From NCBI RefSeq assembly GCF_037902255.1, contig NZ_CP147990.1:3750001-3782000 (forward strand): a stretch of DNA of 32,000 bases, given 5' to 3'. This stretch comes from Candidatus Electrothrix sp. GW3-4. Its GTDB lineage: Bacteria; Desulfobacterota; Desulfobulbia; Desulfobulbales; Desulfobulbaceae. Each line of letters starts with the position of its first letter. The first letter of the stretch is position 1. The notes beneath the pieces were generated by a model, which had not been told where the DNA came from, made no database searches, and was given only the letters and a program-made list of their open reading frames with translations. The position numbers and the translations under genes were made by a program. Of this stretch, positions 10,879 through 32,000 are shown one piece after another.

Positions 10879-11331
10879 TTATACTAAAAATCTGAATCCG
10901 GCATTATCCAGGTCTGTTAATGCGGCTTCAAAACTTTCTATCATATTTTTCCCCCAAGCTTTCTTCAATACGGCCACAGTCCCGACAACTGACAACCCGA
11001 GTTCTTCCGCCGTCTGACGCGCCTTCAGATCGTCAAAAATCAAAAAATCCGCTTTACATTCTTCGGCCAGAATTATAGCCTCCGATTCACCGGGACCGAG
11101 GCTCATTCTTAATGCTTTAACCGCCAGCCTATTCTTGGCCTTTCGCCGTTCAATCCAGTCGGAGTTTTTTACCTCCTCCGCACCCGGCCTTCCTTTTCCT
11201 TTGATCACCACTTCGTGATAAACCGCTTCAGGAATCAGGATATTTTTAAAAATCTTCTCAAGAATAAACAGCTTATCAATCTTGCACAATCCGATAAGGC
11301 AGGATGAATCGGCAATGACTATTTTAGACAT
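10879..11331 (-). CDS. PIN-like (DUF3368-type) putative toxin
   Basis: 150 aa. The N-terminal IVIADSSCLIGL is typical of PIN-like nucleic-acid-binding proteins. Overlaps the upstream UPF0175-like gene by 8 nt, the classic pairing. Confidence 0.7.
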   Translation of the reverse strand: MSKIVIADSSCLIGLCKIDKLFILEKIFKNILIPEAVYHEVVIKGKGRPGAEEVKNSDWIERRKAKNRLAVKALRMSLGPGESEAIILAEECKADFLIFDDLKARQTAEELGLSVVGTVAVLKKAWGKNMIESFEAALTDLDNAGFRFLV

Positions 11332-11587
11332 CTGCCAATTTCCCCATATCGTTCTCCAGATCTTCTTTACTGTAATGAATAGGGGTCTTAACGGTTTTAT
11401 TCATTTCGAAAAAATCCCACTGACTCATTCCGCCTATTTCACAGGCTTTGCTTAATGAAATTTTTTTGTGCTCATAAAGGAATATCGCAACCATCTGTTT
11501 TACATCCCGACTTATATTGTCCAGATCCAACCCTGTCTGGGCAAGCACCATTTTCGGCAGTTCAAACTGTATATTCAAAGTGCTCAT
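11324..11587 (-). CDS. UPF0175-family putative antitoxin
   Basis: 87-aa ORF, translationally coupled to the PIN-like gene. Sequence style (AIFLYEHKKISLSKACEIGGMS) matches the UPF0175 HTH-like family as I recall it. Confidence 0.65.
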   Translation of the reverse strand: MSTLNIQFELPKMVLAQTGLDLDNISRDVKQMVAIFLYEHKKISLSKACEIGGMSQWDFFEMNKTVKTPIHYSKEDLENDMGKLADV

Positions 11588-11675
11588 CTTATTCCCACCT
11601 TTTTCCGAACAAAGAAGATTTAACGAAATGTCACCATTCAGGATATGGCAGCATACTTTTCAGGGGCGCAGAAAT

Positions 11676-11705
11676 ATTGTAACCGATATTTGCCGGGTTT
11701 GGCAA
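11676..11705 (-). promoter_or_regulatory. Candidate sigma70 promoter of the PIN/UPF0175 operon
   Basis: Minus strand reads TTGCCA-N18-TACAAT, about 90 nt upstream of the ATG at 11587. Confidence 0.45.
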
Positions 11706-11740
11706 CTGTGGAGGAGGAGGGGCTGAAAGGATTGCGGGGT

Positions 11741-11817
11741 GCCGTAGGGGCGACCGGCGGGTCGCCCGTTTTCAGCCGGGAGTGGTACGAGGGCAGACAC
11801 ATAGGTCTTGCCCCTAC
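11741..11817. repeat. REP-like hairpin pair forming the trailer of array 1
   Basis: Contains ggggcgaccggcgggtcgccc (11747-11767) and gggcagacacataggtcttgccc (11791-11813). Homologous to 10681-10769. Confidence 0.6.
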
Positions 11818-14800
11818 ACCATAATACCCTCTTCATAGGGTAGGTGTTCCGACCGCCAGCTTACAAAAAAGCAGCCAAACAAGGTCAGTCTTAATACCCT
11901 CTTCATAGGGTAGGTGTTCCGACGCGACAGTGGTCGTAAATCGAGGCGATTCCAGCCGTCTTAATACCCTCTTCATAGGGTAGGTGTTCCGACCTGTCCA
12001 CTCGGAGATAATGATTATAATCAGATGTCTTAATACCCTCTTCATAGGGTAGGTGTTCCGACGGCAACAACAACACGGCAGTAATGCAGAGAAAAATGTC
12101 TTAATACCCTCTTCATAGGGTAGGTGTTCCGACTGGTTTCTTCGTCGGCACTGCCCATGCAACGATGTCTTAATACCCTCTTCATAGGGTAGGTGTTCCG
12201 ACAAACCAGCAACCTTGTTCAGACGAAAATGTCGGTCTTAATACCCTCTTCATAGGGTAGGTGTTCCGACAAATGATAACGCTCGAGCGAGCGCGGATCT
12301 GCGTCTTAATACCCTCTTCATAGGGTAGGTGTTCCGACGGAGATGTTGCCAGAATATACAGAGATCAACGTCTTAATACCCTCTTCATAGGGTAGGTGTT
12401 CCGACGGGACTACGATCTACTATCTCAACAAAATCAGATCGTCTTAATACCCTCTTCATAGGGTAGGTGTTCCGACACCAGTCGCAATTGGAACGATTTA
12501 CAAAGAAGGTCTTAATACCCTCTTCATAGGGTAGGTGTTCCGACAAAAGGCGAGACTTACATGTGGACAAAGGCTGATGCGTCTTAATACCCTCTTCATA
12601 GGGTAGGTGTTCCGACAAAGCGGTTTTTTCTCCCCAAAGGCGTAGTTAAGCCTGTCTTAATACCCTCTTCATAGGGTAGGTGTTCCGACATGAAGCAGTA
12701 TCTCAACAACAGACACAAGCTCAGATTGTCTTAATACCCTCTTCATAGGGTAGGTGTTCCGACTGAAAAGTGGGTATAACACAAAGTGGGCTAAGTCTTA
12801 ATACCCTCTTCATAGGGTAGGTGTTCCGACGGCTGGCCTTGTTGGGATTCATTTTTTACCTAGGTCTTAATACCCTCTTCATAGGGTAGGTGTTCCGACG
12901 TCGTGGCAGCTCCAACCGGTCGTCGAACCAGCCGTCGTCTTAATACCCTCTTCATAGGGTAGGTGTTCCGACTATTGGTATGGTGCTTATAATAGCTTTG
13001 TTACCACTGTGTCTTAATACCCTCTTCATAGGGTAGGTGTTCCGACTCGGGCAATTGTGAAATAATATTTCTTCTAGCTGTCTTAATACCCTCTTCATAG
13101 GGTAGGTGTTCCGACTATAAGAAAAACATCCAAGAGAAGGGGTTTCAAAGTCTTAATACCCTCTTCATAGGGTAGGTGTTCCGACTATTTGAAGTTGGTT
13201 GATGAAGGTGGACAAGATGAGTCTTAATACCCTCTTCATAGGGTAGGTGTTCCGACACAAATGGATGCCTAAATCAAACCACAAACTTTGTCTTAATACC
13301 CTCTTCATAGGGTAGGTGTTCCGACTCAAATAAAAAAGATGGCGACCCCGTAAAAATGTCTTAATACCCTCTTCATAGGGTAGGTGTTCCGACACCATTT
13401 CTTATTCAGAAAATGGGATTTGGAAGTTGGTCTTAATACCCTCTTCATAGGGTAGGTGTTCCGACTATTATGAGCTACGTATTAGTTCATATAATTATGT
13501 CTTAATACCCTCTTCATAGGGTAGGTGTTCCGACCCAGCTTGCGATGCCAGGTGCCAAGCTGCCAGATGGTCTTAATACCCTCTTCATAGGGTAGGTGTT
13601 CCGACCTAGGACTTGACTTGTCGATTCATCATTTCATCAATGAGTCTTAATACCCTCTTCATAGGGTAGGTGTTCCGACGGCGGAGACTGTGATGAAGTC
13701 CCCACTGGGGACGCGTCTTAATACCCTCTTCATAGGGTAGGTGTTCCGACCATTATGGCTACGGAAGCCGATCAAGCAGTTGGTCTTAATACCCTCTTCA
13801 TAGGGTAGGTGTTCCGACATACTCCATCCTGTTCCAATGGGAATTGCCTTAGGTCTTAATACCCTCTTCATAGGGTAGGTGTTCCGACATTACTCCCTCT
13901 TGCTTCTGCACAGGCTCAATGTCCGTCTTAATACCCTCTTCATAGGGTAGGTGTTCCGACGTCATACTGCCGTCAGAATAGACCCAGTAGGCAACTGTCT
14001 TAATACCCTCTTCATAGGGTAGGTGTTCCGACAGAACGTTACGCTAACATGGCAGTAGAACTTGTCTTAATACCCTCTTCATAGGGTAGGTGTTCCGACT
14101 ATGCTGTATTTTCTGGGCTTATCAACCGAAAAGTCTTAATACCCTCTTCATAGGGTAGGTGTTCCGACGTCGGAAATTTTTGGATGTCAAAACACATCCA
14201 GTCAGTCTTAATACCCTCTTCATAGGGTAGGTGTTCCGACAAATTCAACAAATCAGGGGGGATATTATGACTTTGTCTTAATACCCTCTTCATAGGGTAG
14301 GTGTTCCGACTATCTACCGACATCCTAGTGATGGTATGAGGATTGTCTTAATACCCTCTTCATAGGGTAGGTGTTCCGACACAGAAAAACAATTAAAAAA
14401 GTGTGCGGTTGCAATACGTCTTAATACCCTCTTCATAGGGTAGGTGTTCCGACCGGTAACTATTTGAGAAAATCCGTTTATAATTACGTCTTAATACCCT
14501 CTTCATAGGGTAGGTGTTCCGACCTCTCGACGTGTTGTCGGGATGCAGACATTTCGTCTTAATACCCTCTTCATAGGGTAGGTGTTCCGACGCCGTTGGT
14601 GGTAAAAACAACTTCAGGACAGTTTGTCTTAATACCCTCTTCATAGGGTAGGTGTTCCGACTATCAAGAACGGTCCCAATTGGGGCAATTTCACAATGTC
14701 TTAATACCCTCTTCATAGGGTAGGTGTTCCGACTACTGGCTTTTGTCATGTATTCCCAACTCCCAAGTCTTAATACCCTCTTCATAGGGTAGGTGTTCCG

Positions 14801-14941
14801 ACGGCAATGCTCTTGCCCAACAACAGCGACAACAGGTCTTAATACCCTCTTCATAGGGTAGGTGTTCCGACAATACTGAAGAGGGTGATGTGAGTATTAA
14901 TATTTGTCTTAATACCCTCTTCATAGGGTAGGTGTTCCGAC
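11818..14941 (-). CRISPR. CRISPR array 1: 45 repeats of 36 bp, 44 spacers
   Basis: - **Repeats:** hand count of gtcttaataccctcttcatagggtaggtgttccgac on the plus strand. The low-coordinate terminal repeat is degenerate (accataa in place of gtcttaa).
- **Spacers:** 31-38 nt, all different within this array.
- **Why minus strand:** the conserved AT-rich leader is at the high-coordinate end and repeat decay is at the low end.
- **Repeat structure:** on the minus strand the repeat is GTCGGAACACC-TACCCT-ATGAAG-AGGGTA-TTAAGAC. That is a hairpin followed by ATTAAGAC, resembling the ATTGAAAS 8-nt crRNA handle. Confidence 0.97.
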
Positions 14942-15242: not shown

Positions 15243-15581
15243 TCAGTATGCACAAACCACCTGCTCTATCATTTCCGCCAACCATTGATTCACGGTTTTT
15301 CCGCTCGCAAAGGCCCGAGCAACAACCTCGGCGTGCAGGCCGGGGTGAATCTGCACAAGCAATTCGCCTGAATACTCCTTACGCGGCTCAACCCCGTCCT
15401 CCTGACAGCTATCCAAAAAGGTATCCAGGACCTTCTTGCCTTCCCTGAGTAATCCACCGATATCCTGGGAATAAAAAACAACCTTGCTGCTCAGACCAGC
15501 AAACTCACCGCAAAACATTCCGTGTTTCGGATCGTAGCTGATAACCGCCCGATAGCCATCAATATCGACAATATTCATCAT
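15243..15581 (-). CDS. HicB-like antitoxin-fold protein with C-terminal RHH-type DNA-binding tail; no HicA partner
   Basis: 112 aa. The N-terminal DGYRAVISYDPKHGMFCGEF and the C-terminal VQIHPGLHAEVVARAFASGKTVNQWLAEMIEQ resemble HicB-family antitoxins. No small HicA-like ORF is adjacent. Confidence 0.65.
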   Translation of the reverse strand: MMNIVDIDGYRAVISYDPKHGMFCGEFAGLSSKVVFYSQDIGGLLREGKKVLDTFLDSCQEDGVEPRKEYSGELLVQIHPGLHAEVVARAFASGKTVNQWLAEMIEQVVCAY

Positions 15582-17520: not shown

Positions 17521-17636
17521 AGGCAGGCCCCTGTTCCTGCCCGAAATATCGAGGTGATCATCAGGGCGAACACAGGGGTTCGCCCCTACGAAACGATAAT
17601 GATTCCGGGTAGGGACACGGCATGCCGTGTCCCTAC
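17521..17636. repeat. Three GC-rich hairpins between the cas2-like gene and cas1
   Basis: The three are ggcagg-N8-cctgcc (17522-17541), gggcgaac-acaggg-gttcgccc (17564-17585), and the perfect 28-nt palindrome gtagggacacggcatgccgtgtccctac (17609-17636), which overlaps the cas2-like stop codon. Confidence 0.7.
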
Positions 17637-18013
17637 GCCCTCTCTTTCCCGCCAAACAGACGACGGAAAAACCGCCCTGCTCTTGATGGCGTTTGTTTCG
17701 GAACAGACCCTCCATACAGACCGTGCAATTTGTCGTTCTGCCTTCCAGCGGTCCAGACAGCACCGGGATAAGGAACAGGATAAAGGCGTACATCGTCTTC
17801 CTTATCATTAACCCGAGCCAGCACCCCAGCCACCACCTCCTCCAAATCGATGACATCGGCTTTCAAGAGAAAGACCGACCTCTGCACAGAAACTCCCCGT
17901 TTCTTGCAGAAATAATGGAGCCTGCGCAGCCTTTTTTCATGCCGAACATCATAGGCAAGCAGGTACCATTGTGCCTCTCCTCGCTTTCCTTTGCTTTGCC
18001 GTGTCGTATCCAT
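17633..18013 (-). CDS. cas2: Second Cas2-like protein (126 aa, C-terminal extension)
   Basis: The pattern WYLLAYDVRHEKRLRRLHYFCKKRGVSVQRSVFLLK ... DDVRLYPVP follows the Cas2 ferredoxin-fold pattern (YD, Q-SVF, D-vR-Y). A ~40-aa basic tail extends beyond the core. Confidence 0.7.
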   Translation of the reverse strand: MDTTRQSKGKRGEAQWYLLAYDVRHEKRLRRLHYFCKKRGVSVQRSVFLLKADVIDLEEVVAGVLARVNDKEDDVRLYPVPYPGAVWTAGRQNDKLHGLYGGSVPKQTPSRAGRFFRRLFGGKERA

Positions 18014-19131: not shown

Positions 19132-20214
19132 TTACGCAACAGCATTTTTCAGGTGGGCCTCCGCCTCTTTGACCACCCGTTTACCAGCCCTGCGCACCCG
19201 ATGAACAGCAGCCCCGTGCAGCAGATCATCCCGTTCCGCCTCGCCATTGACATGTGCTTTCAGCGTTTCTTTTTCCACAGCCTCCTGATGATGCGCCATA
19301 AAGACCGGAACCACAGCAATGGTCAGCGTGGAAAAGGCCAACATGATTCCGGCTTCCAGCAGGGCAGAAATCAAAATAGAAAACAGAAAGACAAACTGAA
19401 GCGGCAAGAGCGTCCGGTTCCATAAGGACTCAACCACTTGGAGAAAGGCGATGACATGCGGTTCGTTGGCTCGTTTATCCTCTGAATAATCAAGTTCCTG
19501 AATTCCTTTTCGTTCCTGTTCTGTTGCCACTTCTATCGCCTCTCTCTCCTTCCTGAATTCGGCAGCCAACATGGAAGCTGCATCAGCTGCATGCCGATCA
19601 AACTCCATAAGGGCCTGCTGCTGTCCGGTTTTTTCCTGAGCCAGACGCTGTGCAAATTCCTCATATCTGGGGCCTCGAAACGTACCTCGGACCGTGTTGC
19701 CCATTTCCTGAAGCAGGAGAGACTCCAATTGTTGAATACGCTGCCCCCATTGCTCCTGAACAGCCTTTCTTTTTTGTGCCTGGCCTGCTTGGGCAGTGAC
19801 TTTTCGGGCATTGTACAAACGCTCTGCTTCGATAAGACGCTCCTCGTGCCGTTGCTCCACAGCCTCCAGCTCAGCGGTCCGCACTTTCTCCAGACCAGGG
19901 CGATCAAGGCGGGCAGAGAGAAAAAGCATGGAACAAAGCAGGGAAAGGAAGACCAGGCCCAAGCGAAAAAAAAGCGAGATCAGACGAACCGTGGTCGGAT
20001 ACTCGTGGTCGGAAAGATGGTGGAGATAATAATGCCAGATAATGGCTGAGATTTTACCGCATTCCAAGGTAACAGCCAGCAACAGAGCAAGGGGCTGCGG
20101 ACTAAAAAAAGAGCTCAGAACCCGGTATTCAAGAAAGAATGAGCAGACGAAGAGGCCGATACCAACAATAAGTTGCACCAGCCAACTTCCTTTAAAAAAG
20201 ACGGACAAAAACAT
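19132..20214 (-). CDS. Uncharacterised membrane protein: 3 N-terminal TM helices, ~170-aa coiled coil, C-terminal TM hairpin (360 aa)
   Basis: The ORF is 19132..20292. The start is assigned to the ATG at 20214 (MFLSVFFKGSW), preceded by ggaggg. Hydrophobic segments: LVQLIVGIGLFVCSFFL, LALLLAVTLECGKISAIIW, LISLFFRLGLVFLSLLCSMLFL, LQFVFLFSILISALLEAGIMLAFSTLTIAVVPVF. The central region is charged and Q/E/R-rich. No family recognised. Confidence 0.6.
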   Translation of the reverse strand: MFLSVFFKGSWLVQLIVGIGLFVCSFFLEYRVLSSFFSPQPLALLLAVTLECGKISAIIWHYYLHHLSDHEYPTTVRLISLFFRLGLVFLSLLCSMLFLSARLDRPGLEKVRTAELEAVEQRHEERLIEAERLYNARKVTAQAGQAQKRKAVQEQWGQRIQQLESLLLQEMGNTVRGTFRGPRYEEFAQRLAQEKTGQQQALMEFDRHAADAASMLAAEFRKEREAIEVATEQERKGIQELDYSEDKRANEPHVIAFLQVVESLWNRTLLPLQFVFLFSILISALLEAGIMLAFSTLTIAVVPVFMAHHQEAVEKETLKAHVNGEAERDDLLHGAAVHRVRRAGKRVVKEAEAHLKNAVA

Positions 20215-20284
20215 CAGACAACCCTCCAGAGTTGAATAAGAATCTTGAAGGGTGACTATGCCGCAAAAAGGAAAACCCTGCCTG

Positions 20285-20302
20285 TCCGGCAAGGTTGCGG
20301 GA
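20285..20302 (-). promoter_or_regulatory. Inverted-repeat motif (site 2 of 3)
   Basis: tccggcaaggttgcggga, ~79 nt upstream of the ATG at 20214. Confidence 0.4.
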
Positions 20303-20442
20303 TGGAATAACGGGAGAGGGAGGGAAGAAAGGAGGGGGCTGTCAGATCCCCTTTGCTGTGATGAGGGTCTCTAGGCGCGACCGGCGGTAGCCCGGATTTT
20401 TCATGGGCATAAAAAAAAGGCGATCACAAGGACCGCCTCTTC

Positions 20443-20476
20443 GCCTTAAACCCCTCTTCATAGGGTAGGTGTTGAC
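20443..20476 (-). repeat. Solitary degenerate CRISPR repeat (orphan 2)
   Basis: gccttaaacccctcttcatagggtaggtgtt--gac compared with the array repeat has 3 substitutions and a 2-nt deletion. On the minus strand a weak hairpin plus T8 (about 20445-20411) follows it. Confidence 0.75.
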
Positions 20477-20492
20477 AATTTTAACGGCCTGT

Positions 20493-20864
20493 TTACACGG
20501 AATTTATTTTCGCAAGCGTTGCAATGGGTTTTAAACGGGAAATCTTTTTTGCTTCCGGGCTGTTCATGGCGTGCCAAAGATCCCAATCCTGCTGGAGTCC
20601 CAACCAGAAGTCCGCTGACATACCAAGCACCTGAGATAGCCGAAGGGCAGTGGATGGAGTGATTGAACGTCGCTCCTTAAGGATATCAATAAGAGAAGAG
20701 TATGAAACATCCAAACGTCGAGCAAATTCTTTTCTTGTTATACCCAGGGGTTTGATAAACTCCTCGGCAAGCATCTCGCCGGGATGCGTCGGAGGGCGTT
20801 GCCGGGGCAGGCGCCGACCGGCTGGTCTTTCAGTGGTAGTCAGTGATTTCGACTTCGCATGCAT
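20493..20864 (-). CDS. higA: HigA-family HTH antitoxin
   Basis: The ORF is 20493..21083. The start is assigned to the ATG at 20864 (MHAKSKS), which overlaps the higB end by 35 nt. HigA-type block: THPGEMLAEEFIKPLGITRKEFARRLDVSYSSLIDILKERRSITPSTALRLSQVLGMSADFWLGLQ. Confidence 0.8.
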   Translation of the reverse strand: MHAKSKSLTTTERPAGRRLPRQRPPTHPGEMLAEEFIKPLGITRKEFARRLDVSYSSLIDILKERRSITPSTALRLSQVLGMSADFWLGLQQDWDLWHAMNSPEAKKISRLKPIATLAKINSV

Positions 20865-21123
20865 GGCTGTTCTCCCATTGAAAGCAGATTCGATACTGCT
20901 GATTAATTCGTATGCTGTATTGATCATCCCGGTCACCTCTGAGGCGTTCCAGGCGGTTTCCAGGAGGAATCCTGAGTTCACCGATTTCTCTGATTCGGTT
21001 GATTTGATCCAGCTTTCGACGGGCCACAGGCCAAATGGACTTCGGACAGCATTTTCTTGCAGCTCGGGATGCTGAGCCGTCAAAAATATCTTCTGTACCC
21101 GCGTTTTTGAACGACTGTATCAT
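20830..21123 (-). CDS. higB: HigB toxin (RelE/ParE superfamily, 'plasmid maintenance system killer' type)
   Basis: 97 aa. MIQSFKNAGTEDIF ... LRIPPGNRLERLRGDRDDQYSIRINQQYRICF is typical of HigB. A perfect TATAAT box lies on the minus strand at 21135-21130, just upstream. Confidence 0.85.
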   Translation of the reverse strand: MIQSFKNAGTEDIFDGSASRAARKCCPKSIWPVARRKLDQINRIREIGELRIPPGNRLERLRGDRDDQYSIRINQQYRICFQWENSHACEVEITDYH

Positions 21124-21202
21124 AGATCAATTATATCTCATTCCATGACAGGCGTACAGAGTAATTCCTTGTTCTTGTGTTTGACTGATGTTTTTCGTGG
21201 GC

Positions 21203-21231
21203 ACAAAAAAAGGGCGACCGACCGGTCGCCC
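21203..21231 (-). terminator. Intrinsic terminator directly after orphan repeat 3
   Basis: Minus strand reads GGGCGACC-GGTC-GGTCGCCC (8-bp GC stem) followed by TTTTTTT. Confidence 0.6.
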
Positions 21232-21235
21232 TTAC

Positions 21236-21271
21236 ATCTTAATACCCTCTTCATAGGGTAGGTGTTTCAAT
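21236..21271 (-). repeat. Solitary degenerate CRISPR repeat (orphan 3)
   Basis: atcttaataccctcttcatagggtaggtgtttcaat matches the array repeat at 32/36 positions, with the hairpin intact. Confidence 0.85.
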
Positions 21272-21299
21272 AGTTATCAACAAGCTGACGAGTTTCCCG

Positions 21300-21605
21300 T
21301 CAAACTCTTTCTCGCCAGTAATCCGGTTGACGGTGCAGATGCATCACTGCGATGACCTGAATGACAGTTTCTTTGACTCGATAGATGAGTCCGTACGGGA
21401 ATCGGTGAATAATGTAGCGTCTGATACCACTGTCTTTATCAAGCAAAGGCCAGATCTCAGGCGAGTCCCTCACTGTCTCAATGGCCTGATCCACCTCATT
21501 GAGAAACTTTATTCCGAGATTGGTCGCCTGCCTCTCGTACCAGGTGCGAGAATATTCCAGCTCAGGATAGACATCCGGGTGCAGGTCAACGCTGTACTTT
21601 GGCAT
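21300..21605 (-). CDS. RelE/ParE-family toxin
   Basis: The ORF is 21300..21665. The start is assigned to the ATG at 21605 (MPKYSVDLHPDV). The C-terminal RRYIIHRFPYGLIYRVKETVIQVIAVMHLHRQPDYW is ParE/RelE-like. Overlaps the upstream antitoxin by 20 nt. Confidence 0.7.
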   Translation of the reverse strand: MPKYSVDLHPDVYPELEYSRTWYERQATNLGIKFLNEVDQAIETVRDSPEIWPLLDKDSGIRRYIIHRFPYGLIYRVKETVIQVIAVMHLHRQPDYWRERV

Positions 21606-21831
21606 TTCGATACAGGCGTTTTTTGACTTCCTCCCACGGGGTACAGTTAACAGCACCGGAGTCAATATCGTTCAACCGTCTGTCAATCTCCTTTTGCCAC
21701 GCATGCCAAATTTCCCTATCTAGGGGAGCTTCAAGACTGGCAAGCAGGGCCTCTGCTATGTGTGCTCGTTCGGCTTCTGGTCGTTTAAGGGCACTATCCA
21801 GTATTTTCTCCGCAACCGTTATGCTCATCAT
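21586..21831 (-). CDS. Putative addiction-module antitoxin (81 aa)
   Basis: Contains ERAHIAEALLASLE ... WHAWQKEIDRRLNDIDSG ... WEEVKKRL, the pattern of the small 'addiction module component' antitoxins. Coupled to the toxin gene. Confidence 0.65.
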   Translation of the reverse strand: MMSITVAEKILDSALKRPEAERAHIAEALLASLEAPLDREIWHAWQKEIDRRLNDIDSGAVNCTPWEEVKKRLYRNAKVQR

Positions 21832-21842
21832 GTTTCTCCGTT

Positions 21843-21859
21843 TTACATAGTTTATGTAA
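21843..21859 (-). promoter_or_regulatory. Candidate TA operator palindrome
   Basis: ttacata-gtt-tatgtaa, with 7-bp arms, immediately upstream of the RBS (ggaga) of the antitoxin gene. Confidence 0.4.
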
Positions 21860-21912
21860 ATAGTATCATGGTGAGAGATATGCGTAAAGCAAAGATTCAG
21901 ACGGGATTGCGG

Positions 21913-24900
21913 GCTGTAATACCCTCTTCATAGGGTAGGTGTTCCGACAAAGAGCAAGTTGTCAAAGCGCCCCCGTTCTCGGTCTTAATACCCTCTTCAT
22001 AGGGTAGGTGTTCCGACCCACAGAGACAAGCTCAGAGACAAGCTCAGAAAAGTCTTAATACCCTCTTCATAGGGTAGGTGTTCCGACAGACCTGCTGGTG
22101 TAGGAATAACGAGTCAGATCTGTCTTAATACCCTCTTCATAGGGTAGGTGTTCCGACAATGGTTTCGCCCCGTAAGTAATCATAAGGGCGAGACTAAAAC
22201 AACCGTCTTAATACCCTCTTCATAGGGTAGGTGTTCCGACTTACACGTTTTATGTTACGTAGGCTTGCCAATGGTGTCTTAATACCCTCTTCATAGGATA
22301 GGTGTTCCGACGGAGAGAAGGTGCCAGAAGACTATAACTCGTCGGAGGTCTTAATACCCTCTTCATAGGGTAGGTGTTCCGACTTAGCTTGATATTACAA
22401 TTCATCACAACTTTATTAGGTCTTAATACCCTCTTCATAGGGTAGGTGTTCCGACTGAATTCAATTCAGGAGAGCAGTATTTTTATGTCTTAATACCCTC
22501 TTCATAGGGTAGGTGTTCCGACTTAGCTTGATATTACAATTCATCACAACTTTATTAGGTCTTAATACCCTCTTCATAGGGTAGGTGTTCCGACTGAATT
22601 CAATTCAGGAGAGCAGTATTTTTATGTCTTAATACCCTCTTCATAGGGTAGGTGTTCCGACAACAATAATTCCCTCAACCGACCCCCTCGCTTGTCTTAA
22701 TACCCTCTTCATAGGGTAGGTGTTCCGACAAGGGAGATGTTATGAGTGATCGTTAGAAATGGTCTTAATACCCTCTTCATAGGGTAGGTGTTCCGACTGT
22801 TGAATTATGGAGAATACGTTATCTAGTGGGCGTCTTAATACCCTCTTCATAGGGTAGGTGTTCCGACGAAAGGGATGCTTTGAAACGCTTATTACAGGAA
22901 GTCTTAATACCCTCTTCATAGGGTAGGTGTTCCGACAACAAAGGAGTTACTTATGTCATCACTGAACTGAGTCTTAATACCCTCTTCATAGGGTAGGTGT
23001 TCCGACTGGAGCTAAGACCAAAAGGGAGCACAAGCTTATTGTCTTAATACCCTCTTCATAGGGTAGGTGTTCCGACTTATTTGAGACACCTGAATGCAAA
23101 GACCCAGAATGTCTTAATACCCTCTTCATAGGGTAGGTGTTCCGACTGTTTCCAGATGACAACAGAGCATCCTTCTTTGAGTCTTAATACCCTCTTCATA
23201 GGGTAGGTGTTCCGACTGGAGCTAAGACCAAAAGGGAGCACAAGCTTATTGTCTTAATACCCTCTTCATAGGGTAGGTGTTCCGACCTCACAGCGAAAGA
23301 AAGAGGTAAATTTGCAAAGGTCTTAATACCCTCTTCATAGGGTAGGTGTTCCGACAAAAAAGATATTTGCTAAGAACATAATAGTCAAAGCGTCTTAATA
23401 CCCTCTTCATAGGGTAGGTGTTCCGACGCATTCGGTTGTTAACTAATCGCTTGCCTAAAACTCTGTCTTAATACCCTCTTCATAGGGTAGGTGTTCCGAC
23501 TGAAGAGGTTGAACAGGCTCGCCCTGTTCACGGTCTTAATACCCTCTTCATAGGGTAGGTGTTCCGACTATGTCAAAAATGTGAAACAACATGGAAACCG
23601 TCTTAATACCCTCTTCATAGGGTAGGTGTTCCGACCGATTGACGTTTCCAGTGCAACTGTTTTTTGTCTTAATACCCTCTTCATAGGGTAGGTGTTCCGA
23701 CGACACCTCCTCATCGAGGTAGAAGGAGTCTTTTGTCTTAATACCCTCTTCATAGGGTAGGTGTTCCGACGAAAGAAAGTCCCAAATGGGAACAACTGTG
23801 GATGTCTTAATACCCTCTTCATAGGGTAGGTGTTCCGACAGGGGAGGCTGGGAAACGGGTCGCTTTACAGAGGTCTTAATACCCTCTTCATAGGGTAGGT
23901 GTTCCGACAGATCAATCGCGTACAAGGAACAACATCTGCCGTGGCGTCTTAATACCCTCTTCATAGGGTAGGTGTTCCGACTGGTTTACACGCCAGTTGA
24001 GGTTGATGGATCAGTCTTAATACCCTCTTCATAGGGTAGGTGTTCCGACGAGGAACTGCCATATCTAAACGGATGGGGAGTTCGGTCTTAATACCCTCTT
24101 CATAGGGTAGGTGTTCCGACCGCTGTCGCAGTTCAACCAAAACCGCATTGCCGTCTTAATACCCTCTTCATAGGGTAGGTGTTCCGACAAGTAGAAACCG
24201 ATGTAGCAGAAGGAAACTACCCGGTCTTAATACCCTCTTCATAGGGTAGGTGTTCCGACAGGGCTCTTGCTGGGGTCCAGCACATTCCTGTACTTGTCTT
24301 AATACCCTCTTCATAGGGTAGGTGTTCCGACTCTGCCGTCGCCTGTGACAGAAGAAACCGAGAAGTCTTAATACCCTCTTCATAGGGTAGGTGTTCCGAC
24401 GTGAACAAAGGCGGGAAAGGTCATAAAGACGATGTCTTAATACCCTCTTCATAGGGTAGGTGTTCCGACGTTTATATCCCATTTATGGGATGCTATTATC
24501 ACGTCTTAATACCCTCTTCATAGGGTAGGTGTTCCGACGCATATCAATGATCCTGTGGGCAAAGAGATGGCGTCTTAATACCCTCTTCATAGGGTAGGTG
24601 TTCCGACCGAATTATTACTACAATTGGCAAATAAAGAGGGTGTCTTAATACCCTCTTCATAGGGTAGGTGTTCCGACAGGTGAGCTGTACTATACAGATT
24701 GCTTGCCTACTGTCTTAATACCCTCTTCATAGGGTAGGTGTTCCGACAGGGGAATCTCGTGTAGCAGGATGAACTATTGGTCTTAATACCCTCTTCATAG
24801 GGTAGGTGTTCCGACCCAGAGGTCGTGCAGATGGGAGAGCTGGTTGATGTCTTAATACCCTCTTCATAGGGTAGGTGTTCCGACGGCTTGCGGCTCATGC

Positions 24901-27900
24901 CGGAGCACATATTCCCAAAAGTCTTAATACCCTCTTCATAGGGTAGGTGTTCCGACACAAGTGTTCACTGTATTGGTGAGCAGAATCGAGTCTTAATACC
25001 CTCTTCATAGGGTAGGTGTTCCGACGCATGTAAAAGTCTGTTGAGAGCTTTCTGGTCCAAGTCTTAATACCCTCTTCATAGGGTAGGTGTTCCGACATTG
25101 CGGGGGCGAAAACCAGCAACCTTGTTCAGTCTTAATACCCTCTTCATAGGGTAGGTGTTCCGACGAGGAACTGCCATATCTAAACGGATGGGGAGTTCGG
25201 TCTTAATACCCTCTTCATAGGGTAGGTGTTCCGACCGCTGTCGCAGTTCAACCAAAACCGCATTGCCGTCTTAATACCCTCTTCATAGGGTAGGTGTTCC
25301 GACAAGTAGAAACCGATGTAGCAGAAGGAAACTACCCGGTCTTAATACCCTCTTCATAGGGTAGGTGTTCCGACAGGGCTCTTGCTGGGGTCCAGCACAT
25401 TCCTGTACTTGTCTTAATACCCTCTTCATAGGGTAGGTGTTCCGACTCTGCCGTCGCCTGTGACAGAAGAAACCGAGAAGTCTTAATACCCTCTTCATAG
25501 GGTAGGTGTTCCGACGTGAACAAAGGCGGGAAAGGTCATAAAGACGATGTCTTAATACCCTCTTCATAGGGTAGGTGTTCCGACGTTTATATCCCATTTA
25601 TGGGATGCTATTATCACGTCTTAATACCCTCTTCATAGGGTAGGTGTTCCGACGCATATCAATGATCCTGTGGGCAAAGAGATGGCGTCTTAATACCCTC
25701 TTCATAGGGTAGGTGTTCCGACCGAATTATTACTACAATTGGCAAATAAAGAGGGTGTCTTAATACCCTCTTCATAGGGTAGGTGTTCCGACAGGTGAGC
25801 TGTACTATACAGATTGCTTGCCTACTGTCTTAATACCCTCTTCATAGGGTAGGTGTTCCGACAGGGGAATCTCGTGTAGCAGGATGAACTATTGGTCTTA
25901 ATACCCTCTTCATAGGGTAGGTGTTCCGACCCAGAGGTCGTGCAGATGGGAGAGCTGGTTGATGTCTTAATACCCTCTTCATAGGGTAGGTGTTCCGACG
26001 GCTTGCGGCTCATGCCGGAGCACATATTCCCAAAAGTCTTAATACCCTCTTCATAGGGTAGGTGTTCCGACACAAGTGTTCACTGTATTGGTGAGCAGAA
26101 TCGAGTCTTAATACCCTCTTCATAGGGTAGGTGTTCCGACGCATGTAAAAGTCTGTTGAGAGCTTTCTGGTCCAAGTCTTAATACCCTCTTCATAGGGTA
26201 GGTGTTCCGACATTGCGGGGGCGAAAACCAGCAACCTTGTTCAGTCTTAATACCCTCTTCATAGGGTAGGTGTTCCGACGGGGCAGGACCCTCTATTCGG
26301 GAGGCAAATGAAAAGTCTTAATACCCTCTTCATAGGGTAGGTGTTCCGACCAGGGACAGGATCGTGCTGGCAACTTGATCTGTGTCTTAATACCCTCTTC
26401 ATAGGGTAGGTGTTCCGACGTTTCTTTAAAATCTAACCTTTCTCCGATGTCTTAATACCCTCTTCATAGGGTAGGTGTTCCGACTTTAAAAAAGCCGTTA
26501 AAACAAACTTATGTGGTGCGTCTTAATACCCTCTTCATAGGGTAGGTGTTCCGACAATGGATACATGCAGGAGGCTTTTGCCTACACAGTGGTCTTAATA
26601 CCCTCTTCATAGGGTAGGTGTTCCGACTGCGGTTGGTTTAATAGTAGGAGCCTTTCTCATGTCTTAATACCCTCTTCATAGGGTAGGTGTTCCGACGGAG
26701 AAATTTACCGTGGAAAAGAAATATTTTACAGTCTTAATACCCTCTTCATAGGGTAGGTGTTCCGACACTTACGGTCGGGTTATCCGTTCAAACATGGATG
26801 CGTCTTAATACCCTCTTCATAGGGTAGGTGTTCCGACGGAGCCTCCTAAATAGGATGTATTGTTGGGTGGGTCTTAATACCCTCTTCATAGGGTAGGTGT
26901 TCCGACAGCTTTCAACGCCATTACGGTTCTCGTAGCTGGGTCTTAATACCCTCTTCATAGGGTAGGTGTTCCGACAATGTGAATGCTCCTCTGAATGGCT
27001 CGGCTACGACGTCTTAATACCCTCTTCATAGGGTAGGTGTTCCGACTCTTAGAGATGTAATGTCGCCTGCTCACACTATGGTCTTAATACCCTCTTCATA
27101 GGGTAGGTGTTCCGACGAGAGTTTCTGGCATGCTGGGAAGTAATCTGGGTCTTAATACCCTCTTCATAGGGTAGGTGTTCCGACTATTTGGCGGTTACAG
27201 ATGCCATAAGGCGAAGTCTTAATACCCTCTTCATAGGGTAGGTGTTCCGACGTACATCACGTTGAACCAAGTTAACCAACAAAACGTCTTAATACCCTCT
27301 TCATAGGGTAGGTGTTCCGACACACTTATCCTCTTAAGGAGGCTGTTCCATGAGTCTTAATACCCTCTTCATAGGGTAGGTGTTCCGACGAAGAGAGGGG
27401 CTTTAACCCCGCTTGTATATGTGGTCTTAATACCCTCTTCATAGGGTAGGTGTTCCGACAGCAGCAAAAGGAACAACCGCCGTAGTTGCTATGTCTTAAT
27501 ACCCTCTTCATAGGGTAGGTGTTCCGACTTTCTGCCTGACCCTAACGGAGAAAGGGGGCCGTCTTAATACCCTCTTCATAGGGTAGGTGTTCCGACGTCA
27601 GCCAGAAAATGCAGCTGGAGGACTTGTTTGTCTTAATACCCTCTTCATAGGGTAGGTGTTCCGACAGCAGCAAAAGGAACAACCGCCGTAGTTGCTATGT
27701 CTTAATACCCTCTTCATAGGGTAGGTGTTCCGACAGAGGACTCCGCCTTTACAGGGGCACAATCAGGTGGTCTTAATACCCTCTTCATAGGGTAGGTGTT
27801 CCGACAATAGCACTGGAGAGAGCACTAAGCGTAAATAATAAGTCTTAATACCCTCTTCATAGGGTAGGTGTTCCGACACCTTCTACAAAGATGATAACGG

Positions 27901-28579
27901 TAACTATTTGAGAAGTCTTAATACCCTCTTCATAGGGTAGGTGTTCCGACACAAACACCTGCTACTATGGGGACCTAAACCAGTCTTAATACCCTCTTCA
28001 TAGGGTAGGTGTTCCGACGGGGATACAAGGGATAATAGATCCCCCAAAACAGTCTTAATACCCTCTTCATAGGGTAGGTGTTCCGACAACCAATAATGCC
28101 CATATAGATGAATCATCTGTCTTAATACCCTCTTCATAGGGTAGGTGTTCCGACACAGGTGTAGGGCTGGCTATTGCCGTGCCTGGCTTCGTCTTAATAC
28201 CCTCTTCATAGGGTAGGTGTTCCGACGGAAAAATGATTTCCCATTCGTGGGACACGATTATCCGTCTTAATACCCTCTTCATAGGGTAGGTGTTCCGACA
28301 ACTATGAGGTTCCTGCCCAACCACTGCCATCTCGGTCTTAATACCCTCTTCATAGGGTAGGTGTTCCGACAGGAAAATCCATGAAAAAATCACACATCGT
28401 CTTAGTCTTAATACCCTCTTCATAGGGTAGGTGTTCCGACGGAGCAGGCTTGTAGCCTGCTCCATGCTTGTCCGTCTTAATACCCTCTTCATAGGGTAGG
28501 TGTTCCGACCTCTTAACATCTGGCTTGGTGTATGTCTGGGGGCGTCTTAATACCCTCTTCATAGGGTAGGTGTTCCGAC
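21913..28579 (-). CRISPR. CRISPR array 2: 96 repeats of 36 bp, 95 spacers (about 75 distinct)
   Basis: Same repeat as array 1, counted by hand. Spacers are 29-37 nt, plus one 47-nt outlier at 22158-22204. One repeat carries a G-to-A variant (22276-22311, ...cataggatagg...). The low-coordinate terminal repeat is degenerate (gctgtaa). The leader is at the high-coordinate end. Confidence 0.97.
24050..26279. repeat. Perfect tandem duplication of a 1115-bp block (16 spacer-repeat units) inside array 2
   Basis: Units from spacer gaggaactgccatatc... to spacer attgcgggggcgaaaacc... occur at 24050-25164 and again at 25165-26279. ORF-track translations of the two copies are identical (24168..24482 = 25283..25597, and so on). 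Confidence 0.9.
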
Positions 28580-29023: not shown

Positions 29024-30142
29024 TCAACTAATCAATATATCCTTCGGTTCCATTTCAACAACATACCCTGCCTGTCCGTTAACCTCCACGGTTTGAATAA
29101 GAAAAGGACGGGCCGCCCGCTCCCCAAGCACCAACACCACAGCCTTTTTCAGCTTGGATTTTCGCTGAAGGAACCATTCCTTCTGCTGAGCAGCATCTCG
29201 ACCCCGAGCCACTTCCTCCACCCGCTCAATCCGTCCGCTCCATTCGCCGACAATGCGGGCATAAACCTGGATATATTCATCAACAAAGGCGTCTTCATCC
29301 GGGATAAAGGGCGGTTCTCCGTTTTTGCGGCGCTCGCACATCCAGAGGTACAGGGCCAGATCCGCATCCCCCATGCGCACCTCCAGAGCATTCAGCCGCA
29401 CCTGCTTGCGACGAATATCAATTTCAATGGTCTCAGGACTGGAAAAACGCTGAATAGTTTCAACAGTCTCCTGAAACCCGGCACTGCCTGTAAGCAGGGC
29501 TTCCGGGATCTGATACCGCATCCGGACAAAAGGAATATCGGAGAGGATGATTTGAGATTCCTCAGTGGAATACCAGGTGTTGTTGACCGCAATGCGTTGG
29601 GGGCGGGGCGGAGGGTAGAAAAAATTCTTGTTTTCCTGAAAGGGTTTCGCCACCAGGACATGGGAAAGGCGGTCCTGCATCCGTCCGTACAGGCTCAGGG
29701 CATAGCCCGCATAATAGGACATGGTTTTACGACCTCCGGCTAGGGAAAGGTGGAGCGCAGCCTGATTGTCTTCAGTAAAGCGCCTGACCTGCTCGGTGAT
29801 AAAATCCGCTGTCATGGTGTTGTGCTCCGCCGATTCAGTATCATCAACAAAAGGTCCGTCCGGGCCTGTTATTGTATGGACCTGGCCGGATGCAAAGGAG
29901 ATGCCTTCCAGGCAGTAATCCTCACAAAAACGATGAAATTCCCCTTTGTCGCCCCCGACCCCGAGCAGGGCGTTCCGGGCGGAGTTTGCGCCTTGAGCCG
30001 TGCTGATCAGGTGGATTTCCGTGGGCACAAAGGCCGGGCTGCTGTCCACGGCCAGTTTGTACAGGGTTTCCGTAAGGATTTGTGGAGTCATGCCGATGAC
30101 GGCAAGGAGGATGCGGCGGGGATATTCGTGGGGTTGCGGCAT
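29024..30142 (-). CDS. CRISPR-associated CARF-like protein (NE0113/TIGR02584-like N-terminus) with C-terminal extension, possibly wHTH
   Basis: 372 aa. The N-terminus RILLAVIGMTPQILTETLYKL and the later SLAGGRKTMSYY and SHVLV match what I recall of the Cas_NE0113 Rossmann-like family. The C-terminal ~150 aa (DADLALYLWMCERRKNG...) are unassigned. The family assignment is from memory, not a search. Confidence 0.6.
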   Translation of the reverse strand: MPQPHEYPRRILLAVIGMTPQILTETLYKLAVDSSPAFVPTEIHLISTAQGANSARNALLGVGGDKGEFHRFCEDYCLEGISFASGQVHTITGPDGPFVDDTESAEHNTMTADFITEQVRRFTEDNQAALHLSLAGGRKTMSYYAGYALSLYGRMQDRLSHVLVAKPFQENKNFFYPPPRPQRIAVNNTWYSTEESQIILSDIPFVRMRYQIPEALLTGSAGFQETVETIQRFSSPETIEIDIRRKQVRLNALEVRMGDADLALYLWMCERRKNGEPPFIPDEDAFVDEYIQVYARIVGEWSGRIERVEEVARGRDAAQQKEWFLQRKSKLKKAVVLVLGERAARPFLIQTVEVNGQAGYVVEMEPKDILIS

Positions 30143-30244: not shown

Positions 30245-30586
30245 TCAGGACTCCTCGTTTAACAGTTCCAGACAGGATGATCTCAGCGGTCGGAGTTTGC
30301 TTTGCACAATATCCCACACCATAGGGATACTCACACCGAAGTATTCATGAATGAGAATATTGCGCAAGCCGATAATTTTTCGCCACTCCACCTCGGGAGC
30401 CTTTTCCCGGACAGAGACAGGTATCTTTCCGGCCGCTTCGCCGATTATTTCAAGATTCCGAATAACAGCGTCCTGTTTTTCTTCATTACTCAGAAAAAGT
30501 TCCTGATTCTGACGATGGGTATACCTCTCTATTTTTTCGACAGCAGCGATAATGTCTTCAATATAGATTTTCCAGTCTCTATACAT
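30245..30586 (-). CDS. hepT: HepT-type (DUF86) toxin
   Basis: 113 aa. Contains the RxxxxHxY motif in [13 protein letters not shown]. Overlaps mntA by 8 nt. Confidence 0.85.
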
Positions 30587-30866
30587 ACAGGGTTTCCTGT
30601 TGAATCATCTTTTTCAGTCGTTTTTTTACGGTCTGCTCCATAACGAGATCAACCGGTCTCCCGAAGAGGTCTTCCAGATAAAATTTCAGTTCCATATAAT
30701 GGTCAAAGGTCGGTTCCGAAAAAGTGACCAGGATATCTATATCGCTTTTGCTGTGTATGTCATCGCGGGCATACGAGCCGAACAGGCCGATGCTGTTTAC
30801 TGAAAAACACCGCTCAATATGCTCTTTTTCATCTTTTAGCGTCGCCAAAATACTATTTTTTCTCAT
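30579..30866 (-). CDS. mntA: MntA-type nucleotidyltransferase antitoxin
   Basis: 95 aa. Minimal nucleotidyltransferase motif [10 protein letters not shown]...SDIDILV. Confidence 0.85.
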
Positions 30867-31231: not shown

Positions 31232-32000
31232 TCACCTTTCCAATAACTGATACCGCCCAAACCCCTTACTGGCCTGCTTACCGATATGCAGCCGCTGCCC
31301 GAGCAAAAGAAAAGGCCAGAACAACTCCGGCTCCGCAGGCGCAAAATCCACTGTCCCGAGAAAGCCCCTGAACTCGACCACCCTGCCCTGTCGCGCTGAC
31401 CAACAGGTGCTTGTGTGCGGGCGCAGGTCAATACTGATAAGCTCGGACTGGGCTGCCCGTTCCTTGAGGGCCCGGAAGTCGGCCTCCAGGGGACAGCCCA
31501 TATAAAAATACTGGAGCAGAGAGACGCGCCGGATCACGGCCATGAGCAGGCGGCTGATCTCAAGGGTGTCCGGGCGAAAGGCCTTATCCGAGGGCAGATA
31601 GGGGGTGAGGAATTGGAGGCGCACAGCAGCAGGCGCAGGCGGCATCGGCATTGGCTCCATAATACTCTCCCGAACCTCACCCTGCTGTTCCCAAATCAGC
31701 CGTTGACCACTGGGCAGTATCTGACTGACCTGAACCAGTTCAGCCTTTGCCCTGTCCGATCCAAAGCCCAGCTGCCCGGATTTTGCCATGGCCCGGACCA
31801 CCGCAGGCAGGCGTTTGCAGGCCGCCCCGGCCAGCACCAGGCCGTGGCTGAATTGCCCACCCGGCGAAATATTCGCCGCACCGCATTGCTCACTATGAAA
31901 GATATGGGGCAGGGGAACGGTGCCCACCTTGCGCATCATTTCTGCCTCGGGCGGTCTGGGGCCTTTGATAAAAAAGGCGAAATCGCATTGATGACGGAGC
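31232..32000 (-). CDS. cas6: Cas6-like crRNA endoribonuclease, N-terminus beyond the window
   Basis: The frame is open from 31232 to the window edge; upstream of the listed Met it reads LRHQCDFAFFIKGPRPPEAE with no stop. The C-terminal Gly-rich loop HIGKQASKGFGRYQL is typical of Cas6. Confidence 0.6.
   Translation of the reverse strand, partial: LRHQCDFAFFIKGPRPPEAEMMRKVGTVPLPHIFHSEQCGAANISPGGQFSHGLVLAGAACKRLPAVVRAMAKSGQLGFGSDRAKAELVQVSQILPSGQRLIWEQQGEVRESIMEPMPMPPAPAAVRLQFLTPYLPSDKAFRPDTLEISRLLMAVIRRVSLLQYFYMGCPLEADFRALKERAAQSELISIDLRPHTSTCWSARQGRVVEFRGFLGTVDFAPAEPELFWPFLLLGQRLHIGKQASKGFGRYQLLER

Follow-up and report, generated by a model that had tools for sequence, protein, structure and literature searches.

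Toxin–antitoxin (TA) modules are already known to be associated with CRISPR loci. In CreTA and CrePA, ectopic degenerate repeats give rise to an RNA antitoxin; in CreTA the repeats flank a spacer-size segment, and the RNA guides the effector to repress the toxin promoter (PMC9458426; bioRxiv 10.1101/2024.01.05.574328). Further, vapBC pairs are interspersed in the cas cassettes of Sulfolobales, where a role in maintenance was proposed (PMC4390879), and type I TA modules lie beside the arrays of C. difficile (PMC5961336). RNA anti-CRISPRs, in turn, are solitary repeat units or mini-arrays on viruses and other mobile elements that give rise to decoy RNAs (PMC10651486). Here we describe a window of 32,000 nt from Candidatus Electrothrix sp. 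GW3-4 (NCBI RefSeq assembly GCF_037902255.1, contig NZ_CP147990.1, positions 3,750,001–3,782,000; coordinates below count from the first base of this window), in which predicted type II TA operons at the trailer ends of two CRISPR arrays occupy slots bounded by single CRISPR repeats. Such repeat-bounded TA cassettes are a genus-wide pattern in Electrothrix, and what they add to the known association of TA modules with CRISPR loci is the bounding by repeats, the apparent exchange at those repeats and a uniform orientation. Type II TA operons with CRISPR repeats as their boundaries were not found to have been described before, in a survey whose incomplete coverage of the literature makes this no proof of novelty; by a search for terms in a 2025 review of TA–CRISPR coupling (PMC12737573), ‘CRISPR array’ occurs once, and ‘trailer’, ‘embedded’, ‘flanked’ and ‘adjacent to’ are not used.

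The Electrothrix cassettes share with CreTA the presence of addiction modules at a CRISPR-cas locus and of degenerate repeats outside the regular array. Their repeats, however, are 641–1008 bp apart and their antitoxins are proteins, and neither a spacer-size segment nor complementarity to a toxin promoter was found. When the 139 spacers of the window were compared with the array-masked window and with all related loci, none matched any cassette, and no spacer or repeat-adjacent segment matched the cassettes or the rest of the window. A self-targeting, CreA-like design is ruled out by this lack of spacer–cassette matches, and with repeats so far apart a CreTA-like design is unlikely. The Sulfolobales and C. 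difficile modules are likewise physically associated with CRISPR loci, but as neighbours of cas genes or arrays; the available text of those papers does not describe them as repeat-bounded, repeat-exchanged or placed between repeat–spacer units. With RNA anti-CRISPRs the locus has in common the occurrence of single repeats outside regular arrays, although those of Electrothrix are chromosomal, stand at array ends and delimit protein-coding cassettes.

A likeness of another kind exists to the TA cassettes of integrons. Integrons such as the Vibrio superintegron hold small, co-oriented cassettes, each with a hairpin-forming boundary repeat; type II TA pairs driven by their own promoters make up many of these, and which cassettes are present at the fixed locus varies. 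It has been proposed that the TA cassettes of chromosomal integrons serve to prevent deletion between repeats, and the explanation favoured below would parallel this role. Co-orientation, one boundary repeat per cassette and variable content at a fixed site are all seen in Electrothrix, but the boundary is a CRISPR repeat and not attC, homologous recombination in the repeat core is the simpler explanation for exchange, and the window open reading frames (ORFs) scanned, which included part of the small ones, showed neither an IntI-type integrase nor attI. The resemblance is one of layout only.

Toxin–antitoxin cassettes at the trailer ends of two arrays

With up to three mismatches allowed, the window holds 141 copies of a CRISPR repeat (GTCTTAATACCCTCTTCATAGGGTAGGTGTTCCGAC on the plus strand), where none would be expected. 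Its transcribed-strand form is GTCGGAACACCTACCCTATGAAGAGGGTATTAAGAC, which contains a 6-bp hairpin, UACCCU/AGGGUA. Arrays 1 and 2 are both built from this one repeat family (Table 1), and all 139 spacers are 31–38 nt long. The high-coordinate flanks of the two arrays are 98% identical over 294 bp and terminate in ...gtattgtttaaagaaaggccgct, directly adjoining the first repeat; their identity marks them as leaders, so that both arrays are read on the minus strand, as are all of the neighbouring CRISPR genes, and the low-coordinate ends are the trailers.

At the trailer end of array 2, every element listed by the original prediction between 20395 and 21948 is present, and its TA assignments agree with Pfam. 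The terminal repeat is followed by an antitoxin of the Unstab_antitox family and then a toxin of the RelE/ParE family; the pair is co-directional, its ORFs overlap at 21586–21608, and both proteins score above the curated profile thresholds, with the gene order and overlap of a type II TA pair. An exact-protein lookup of this antitoxin returned no record; the toxin is 100% identical to an annotated protein of Candidatus Electrothrix sp. GW3-4. The second operon shows the reversed order of HigBA, with the HigB toxin upstream of an antitoxin with a helix-turn-helix (HTH) domain (HTH_3), and the probable start of higA is the ATG at 20864, overlapping the end of higB. Pfam matches, together with gene order and overlap typical of TA pairs, are what identify the cassettes as putative TA modules. 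An identical HigB is encoded by Candidatus Electrothrix sp. YB6 (CP178758.1), although in that genome (locus L001, 10295–10623; L numbers denote the related loci described below) higA is frameshifted by a 1-nt insertion in the HTH region, reflecting either a pseudogene or a long-read assembly error.

The boundary repeats retain their centre and vary at their ends. The terminal repeat of array 2 has three mismatches, confined to its outer 4 nt, and its 3′ handle is degenerate, with ATTACAGC in place of ATTAAGAC. Solitary repeat A starts 28 nt after the ParE stop codon and is variant at both ends (ATTGAAAC...ATTAAGAT), whilst solitary repeat B lies 16 nt past the higA stop codon, with counterparts after higA in L021 and, in truncated form, in L022. 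The 20-nt repeat core is exact in both A and B; the hairpin is intact in the terminal repeat, in A and in the solitary repeat of array 1, and weakened in B. Array 1 was omitted from the original prediction, but its trailer end has the same layout with a UPF0175/DUF3368 pair (10774–11853, minus strand), and its two trailer copies are of one type, being 88% identical over 61 + 33 bp. All three solitary repeats of the window are leaderless and lie 16–72 nt from the 3′ ends of the operons, and the repeat-flanked inserts measure 641, 757 and 1008 bp. As with a CRISPR spacer, the segment 21272–21912 lies between two full repeats of the same family, the terminal repeat and solitary repeat A, but its length is outside the adaptation range and the repeats are not exact duplicates. 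A true, if giant, spacer is ruled out by the three insert lengths and by the non-identity of the flanking repeats.

It had also been proposed that both operons carry regulatory signals of their own. A perfect palindrome, TTACATAGTTTATGTAA, is found at 21843–21859 in the 5′ region of the ParE cassette and is likely to be the operator of the ParE pair, and a TATAAT lies at 21135–21130, just 6 nt upstream of the higB ATG. Whilst both signals are present, the promoter scan, by its own criteria, gave no minus-strand sigma-70 promoter, so that promoter assignments rest on inspection of the sequence and conservation only. No terminator was reported by the terminator scan between the terminal repeat of array 2 and the start codon of the ParE pair. 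Solitary repeat A is followed by a terminator of 10 pairs and a T7 run (21233–21210, minus strand; fold −28.9 kcal/mol, z = −3.9), and the second trailer, next to repeat B, forms a weaker fold (z = −2.3). When 21195–21271 (minus strand) is folded by prediction, the 3′ stem half of repeat A (GGGUAU) pairs with GUGCCC beyond the U-run, replacing the repeat hairpin. Such an alternative fold of repeat and trailer might suppress processing of the last repeat, comparable to what is seen for extraneous CRISPR RNAs in other systems.

Slot contents, turnover and junctions in related genomes

Related loci were retrieved from species-representative genomes and metagenomes by exact match to the 20-nt repeat core, which gave 27 and 15 stretches, respectively. 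The named records are all Electrothrix or Desulfobulbaceae except for one 2.5-kb contig of a metagenome-assembled genome (MAG) labelled ‘Robiginitalea’, which is probably misbinned; the repeat is thus a family of Candidatus Electrothrix. Among viral contigs scanned with the same core, one contig had a single partial match. Repeat copies were located in all loci at up to 10 mismatches and by a profile search, and the ORFs in each inter-repeat gap exceeding spacer length were tested with Pfam.

Across about 40 related loci, ten module families were found in repeat-bounded slots, the ParE pair of the window included: ParE, HigBA, UPF0175/DUF3368, three PIN pairs, two BrnT pairs, MNT/HepT and Rpn/YhgA (Table 1). 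The search for long inter-repeat inserts in genomes with this repeat, which had been suggested as a check, thus yielded TA-type or Rpn/YhgA modules. All ten families are co-oriented with array transcription (two-sided binomial p ~0.002 under random orientation). Nearly all leaderless slots above 300 bp hold an intact or decayed TA-type or Rpn module in this same orientation, the exception being a 4.1-kb gap in L016 that also contains an AAA-ATPase gene and a second array. Contig L022 (1985 bp) reads repeat, 33-nt spacer, repeat with trailer, higBA and a truncated repeat fused to a fragment of the BrnT-partner gene, followed by repeat with trailer, VapBC, repeat, 33-nt spacer and repeat; with 33-nt spacers on both sides, its cassettes therefore sit between ordinary repeat–spacer units. 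The view that TA operons behave as repeat-delimited cassettes is borne out by these loci, since the same slots hold different TA pairs in related Electrothrix and those of L022 are flanked by spacers. No repeat was found near distant ParE homologues in other organisms.

The chromosomal site marked by the 386-aa gene has different contents between gene and array in each of five genomes (Table 1). The flanking gene is 96% identical between L006 (E. laxa) and L026, so that the difference between their slots must be recent. The L006 slot retains a repeat, ~220 bp from the 5′ end region of a cassette and the final codons of its DUF3368 toxin gene, the promoter and both genes having been lost in a deletion of ~800 bp; a never-filled, empty site is ruled out by what is retained. 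Repeats and trailers lacking TA genes had been named beforehand as an observation that would speak against the cassette proposal, and L006 has this form, yet as a decayed cassette it does not refute it.

The same module is joined to different DNA in different loci. In four loci, the BrnT-partner gene stops 2 nt short of a GTTGGAAC-type repeat, with different DNA downstream in each, and the repeat–trailer–higBA unit is preceded by ParE in the window, by VapC in YB6, by a spacer in L022 and by a leader in L021. A relative of the ParE cassette, 86% identical, is found on contig L045, which starts at the base following the upstream repeat; here the downstream repeat comes 29 nt after the toxin stop codon and leads into a different trailer type than in the window. 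Homology between the two extends from the base after the upstream repeat and ends in the 3′ part of the downstream repeat. Indeed, in every case examined where one cassette occurs in differing contexts, homology breaks inside the repeat. The 5′-end variant of a repeat tracks the upstream DNA and its 3′-end variant tracks the downstream trailer type; in 95 junction repeats, positions 13–31 are nearly invariant and both ends are variable, unlike internal array repeats, in which the 3′ handle is invariant. VapBC is preceded by two different hairpin types, and some crossovers seem to have taken place in GC-hairpin trailers as well. Capture or exchange by recombination at CRISPR repeats, one of the explanations offered originally, fits these junctions, as cassette homology is lost inside the repeat.

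Identity between the window and YB6 is 97.1% over repeat, trailer and higBA (higB synonymous divergence, dS, 0.016), against 90.5% in cas6 and 84% in another trailer; as it is higher in the higBA unit than in cas6, this suggests that the unit was exchanged recently. For orthologous cassette copies, the ratio of nonsynonymous to synonymous divergence (dN/dS) is 0.05–0.22 with dS up to 1.2 (against L045, 0.15 for the ParE-pair antitoxin and 0.22 for the toxin; for higB against L022, 0.15–0.17), so that intact cassettes are under purifying selection and have long been kept in repeat-bounded slots. One YB6 locus consists of leader, repeat, trailer, PIN cassette and repeat with zero spacers; here the cassette has outlasted the spacers.

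Rpn/YhgA-like ‘Transposase_31’ nucleases of the PD-(D/E)XK type with a DUF4351 tail were observed in L012 (3000–4037), L013 (2700–3773), L016 (4117–5277) and L041 (1034–1810), in repeat-bounded slots and in the orientation of the TA pairs. The original statement that no mobile-element genes are visible holds for the window; related loci, however, have these genes in equivalent slots and fragments of insertion sequences nearby. The nucleases may represent cassettes in their own right, or may have a part in recombination at repeats. An MNT/HepT pair in L007 (4929–5610), 80% identical to that of the window, lies in a repeat-bounded slot after the array trailer, and the pair in L036 (231–885) has the same position.

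Explanations for the repeat-bounded cassettes

The explanation that we favour, and consider reasonably probable, is that the cassettes are self-contained type II addiction modules in repeat-bounded slots, which are reassorted via the repeats and trailer hairpins and retained because their loss is penalised. The slots stand at the trailer, or oldest, end of type III-associated arrays of Candidatus Electrothrix. A segment between directly oriented repeats would be exchanged among arrays and genomes through recombination within the invariant core of the repeat and likewise within GC-hairpin trailers, so that DNA upstream of one repeat could be joined to DNA downstream of another; in any array built from this repeat family, a repeat-flanked segment could in this way take the place of a spacer, with its orientation preserved by the polarity of the repeat. 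Inter-repeat recombination would normally delete the intervening DNA, and modules whose loss is penalised would persist preferentially, from which we infer that the slots come to hold TA pairs and toxic nucleases; the persisting modules would at the same time shield the end of the array and the cas genes nearby. Being upstream of the array terminator, with no terminator in between, the ParE pair could receive read-through from the array in addition to transcription from its own operator-bearing promoter. HigBA, beyond the terminator, would use a promoter of its own, and each downstream repeat and trailer would serve mainly as a transcript end. If this is true, CRISPR repeats would be mobile stretches of homology by which whole genes, as well as spacers, pass between arrays and genomes, and long arrays (96 and 45 repeats) and cas genes would be stabilised in mobile-element-rich genomes by selfish addiction modules at the array end. 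The loci would also be a naturally occurring case in which to ask whether protein-coding genes are under the control of Cas6 processing or of read-through from the array. Software that detects CRISPR arrays will cut such arrays short or break them up, and annotation pipelines will overlook the cassette structure, so that the arrangement may be under-reported in other lineages.

A number of observations weigh against retention of addiction modules by plain recombination. Many arrays of the repeat family have a plain end of repeat and hairpin trailer, so that cassettes are optional, and decayed cassettes are found in several genomes (L006, L021 and higB fragments in L004, L013 and L017); between them, cassette-free arrays and decayed cassettes mean that any stabilising benefit is dispensable. 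In part, the conserved state of the repeat core reflects ascertainment, as the loci were retrieved by that core. The comparison loci are mostly MAG contigs, in which assembly breaks or chimeras at repeats are possible; at the contig end of L027 (4292–4473), leader-like sequence adjoins repeats in inverted orientation relative to all other loci, which, in view of its place at a contig end, is probably an MAG assembly artefact; repeat-rich contigs can be chimeric. Recombination preserves orientation but does not explain why ten families were co-oriented at first capture, for which dependence of expression on array read-through, selection against transcription that enters a type III array in antisense and a directional insertion mechanism are possible causes. 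It likewise leaves unexplained the promoter-like element common to unrelated cassettes (see below), which hints at a platform more organised than plain homologous recombination, and the keeping of the hairpin core whilst the guide handle decays. Uniform orientation, common element and kept core would all fit an integron-like platform, with CRISPR repeats as recombination sites, cassettes of promoter, genes and repeat moved by a dedicated activity, and expression tied to array transcription. The candidate activities may include the Rpn/YhgA PD-(D/E)XK nucleases, Cas1–Cas2 with the reverse transcriptase (RT), and Cas6-guided processing; the recurrence of Rpn/YhgA genes in the slots is unexplained by the favoured account and keeps such a platform open, although we consider it unlikely.

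A functional coupling, raised in the original prediction, would have the TA mRNAs made or shaped by array read-through and Cas6 cleavage at the flanking repeats, so that the TA balance reports on or guards CRISPR transcription and Cas6 as a protein-based analogue of CreTA. The co-orientation of all ten families and the presence of cas6 in the window are in keeping with it, but the two operons of array 2 differ in what they offer. The path from the terminal repeat to the ParE pair is terminator-free, with a terminator only after solitary repeat A, and the Cas6-type hairpin is intact in both flanking repeats; HigBA, in contrast, is downstream of a strong terminator and the hairpin of the repeat after it is weakened, and both operons have plausible promoters of their own, with a conserved operator palindrome at the ParE pair. 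The junction repeats do retain the hairpin core and lose the 3′ handle needed only by a guide RNA, yet YB6 cassettes persist at collapsed arrays and cassettes decay freely in several genomes, so that coupling of this kind appears improbable. Equally doubtful, in our estimate, is the absence of any special relationship, with TA genes being abundant in defence islands and flanked by chance by solitary repeats left over from collapsed or decayed arrays. Although related genomes contain many solitary repeats that amount to minimal arrays, with a leader, a single repeat and a trailer, those of the window have no leader and closely follow the operons; tandem collapsed arrays with TA genes between them would fit the leader-bearing repeats found elsewhere but are ruled out for these three. 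TA-type genes without an adjoining repeat do occur in the window (HepT/MNT between cas6 and the NE0113 gene, and HicB beside a leader), and Sulfolobales (PMC4390879) and C. difficile (PMC5961336) are known to have TA genes within cas cassettes and next to arrays, respectively. Chance proximity would not, however, lead one to expect TA-type or Rpn modules, always in one orientation, in nearly all large leaderless slots (the L016 gap excepted), breakpoints of homology in the repeat in every case examined, or spacers on both sides of the L022 cassettes.

It is very unlikely that the inserts are oversized spacers, taken up as long DNA or cDNA by Cas1–Cas2 with the associated RT and accompanied by duplication of the repeat. 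Genes for all three proteins are found in the window, and the ParE cassette is directly bracketed by two repeats, with no trailer after the upstream one; the flanking repeats, however, differ at their insert-proximal ends and are not exact duplicates, and repeat end variants travel with the flanking DNA, as crossover predicts. A trailer is part of the HigBA and UPF0175/DUF3368 slots, and integration would not have duplicated it. Cas1–Cas2 measure spacers by a ruler mechanism, and inserts of 641–1008 bp stand against 31–38 nt for every spacer of the window. Nor are the inserts copies of mRNA, since they include promoters and operators.

Trailer types, shared elements and neighbouring genes

The original prediction held the two array 2 trailers to be homologous and proposed that every addition of a TA module brought a duplication of the unit of repeat and trailer. 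The two trailers are indeed similar, but over a short stretch (21191–21217 against 20397–20423, 89% over only 27 bp). The type at 21190–21270 is 91–95% identical to L004, L005 and L017, and that at 20405–20473, equally widespread, is 83–88% identical to L001, L020, L028 and L006. As each trailer is nearer to counterparts in other species than to the other trailer of the window, they represent old paralogous types that came to stand side by side, which rules out a recent duplication. The hairpin and T7 unit next to repeat A is the canonical array end of Electrothrix, following terminal repeats in L004, L005, L015, L017, L022, L031, L034, L039 and L040, and ends many arrays that have no cassette; duplication with each added module is therefore not upheld. 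The second trailer type and the 386-aa flanking gene also occur together in E. laxa L006.

Long trailers made up of recurring hairpin modules (GGGGCGACCGNCGGTCGCCCC, GGGCAGACNNNNGTCTGCCC and CAGGGTGTTACCCTG) were observed in the window (10681–10773 and 11748–11817), in L016 (5358–5600) and in L006 (4794–5131). These modules recur elsewhere in the loci, in the manner of a family of repetitive extragenic palindromes (REP) or of MITEs (miniature inverted-repeat transposable elements); Rfam at gathering thresholds gave no match to them or to anything else in the whole window, trailers included. Arrays of a second, related repeat family (…GCACCCCACCCTATGAAGAGGGTATTGAGAC) occur in some of the same loci (L016, 3640–4104; L030, ~10700–10835) and have the hairpin core in common with the family of the window.

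A promoter-like element, TTGCMAA-N9-ATATCRGYTAYAWT (TTGCCA-N17/18-TACAAT), was found in ten cassette 5′ regions from eight loci as well as upstream of the UPF0175/DUF3368 pair of the window (Table 1). It precedes unrelated cassettes, namely UPF0175/DUF3368, VapBC and Rpn-like genes, and the MNT/HepT pair in L007 is preceded by a close variant that misses the exact pattern; the element looks like part of the slot framework and not of one TA family.

Table 1. Features of the 32,000-nt window and contents of repeat-bounded slots in related loci
Feature	Coordinates or loci	Strand	Details
Array 2	21913–28579	minus	96 repeats
Array 2 terminal repeat	21913–21948	minus	Upstream boundary of ParE cassette
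ParE cassette 5′ region	21832–21912	minus	Conserved in L045
Antitoxin, Unstab_antitox family, 81 aa	21586–21831	minus	Pfam E = 1.3e-14, 54.4 bits (cutoff 23.3)
RelE/ParE-family toxin, 102 aa from ATG at 21608	21300–21608	minus	Pfam ParE_toxin E = 1.5e-7, 32.3 bits (cutoff 23)
Solitary repeat A	21236–21271	minus	32/36 match
Intrinsic terminator/trailer, GC hairpin + T7	21203–21235	minus	Adjoins solitary repeat A
higBA 5′ region	21124–21202	minus	Conserved jointly with trailer and higB in other genomes
higB toxin, 97 aa	20830–21123	minus	Pfam HigB-like toxin E = 1.5e-17, 64.2 bits (cutoff 27)
higA antitoxin (HTH_3), probable start	20493–20864	minus	Pfam E = 3e-10, 40.6 bits (cutoff 23); profile-tested ORF 20496–20813
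Solitary repeat B	20443–20478	minus	29/36 ungapped, or 34 nt with 2-nt deletion
Second trailer type, weaker hairpin + T8	20395–20442	minus	Adjoins 386-aa gene
386-aa flanking gene	19132–20292		Adjoins second trailer of array 2; marks same chromosomal site in other genomes
Array 1	11818–14941	minus	45 repeats
Array 1 terminal repeat	11818–11853	minus	Followed by ~105 bp trailer
Promoter-like element	11676–11705	minus	Before UPF0175
UPF0175 antitoxin	11327–11587	minus	
DUF3368 toxin	10882–11331	minus	
Array 1 solitary repeat	10774–10809	minus	
Second trailer copy, array 1	10681–10773		Just past array 1 solitary repeat
Cas6	31235–31939	minus	
MNT/HepT pair	30248–30866	minus	Between cas6 and NE0113 gene, without adjoining repeat
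Cas_NE0113 protein	29027–30142	minus	
Cas2	17633–18013	minus	
Cas1, 463 aa	16468–17856	minus	
Reverse transcriptase, 277 aa	15654–16484	minus	Separate short ORF; 20-nt overlap with cas1
HicB-family protein	15246–15581	minus	~300 bp upstream of array 1 leader
386-aa gene site	Window		ParE pair, then HigBA
386-aa gene site	L026		BrnT pair, then PIN pair
386-aa gene site	L029 (E. marina)		BrnT pair, then VapBC
386-aa gene site	L041		UPF0175/DUF3368, then truncated Rpn gene
386-aa gene site	L006 (E. laxa)		338 bp only; decayed cassette
UPF0175 + DUF3368	L004, L016, L041		
88-aa protein + PIN	L001, L022, L029		
76-aa protein + PIN_3	L001/L011		
77-aa protein + PIN	L026		
BrnT + small partner	L026, L029		Remnants in L001, L012, L022
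HigBA	L001, L022		Decayed in L021; fragments in L004, L013, L017, L034
MNT + HepT	L007, L036		
Rpn/YhgA ‘Transposase_31’ nucleases	L012, L013, L016, L041		
Promoter-like element	L004 552, L007 6072, L012 3000, L013 3744, L016 26/4228/5599, L022 781, L029 4319, L034 407		

The first 10 kb of the window is filled by housekeeping genes. The HicB-family gene has no visible HicA partner, and the same HicB precedes an array in L029.

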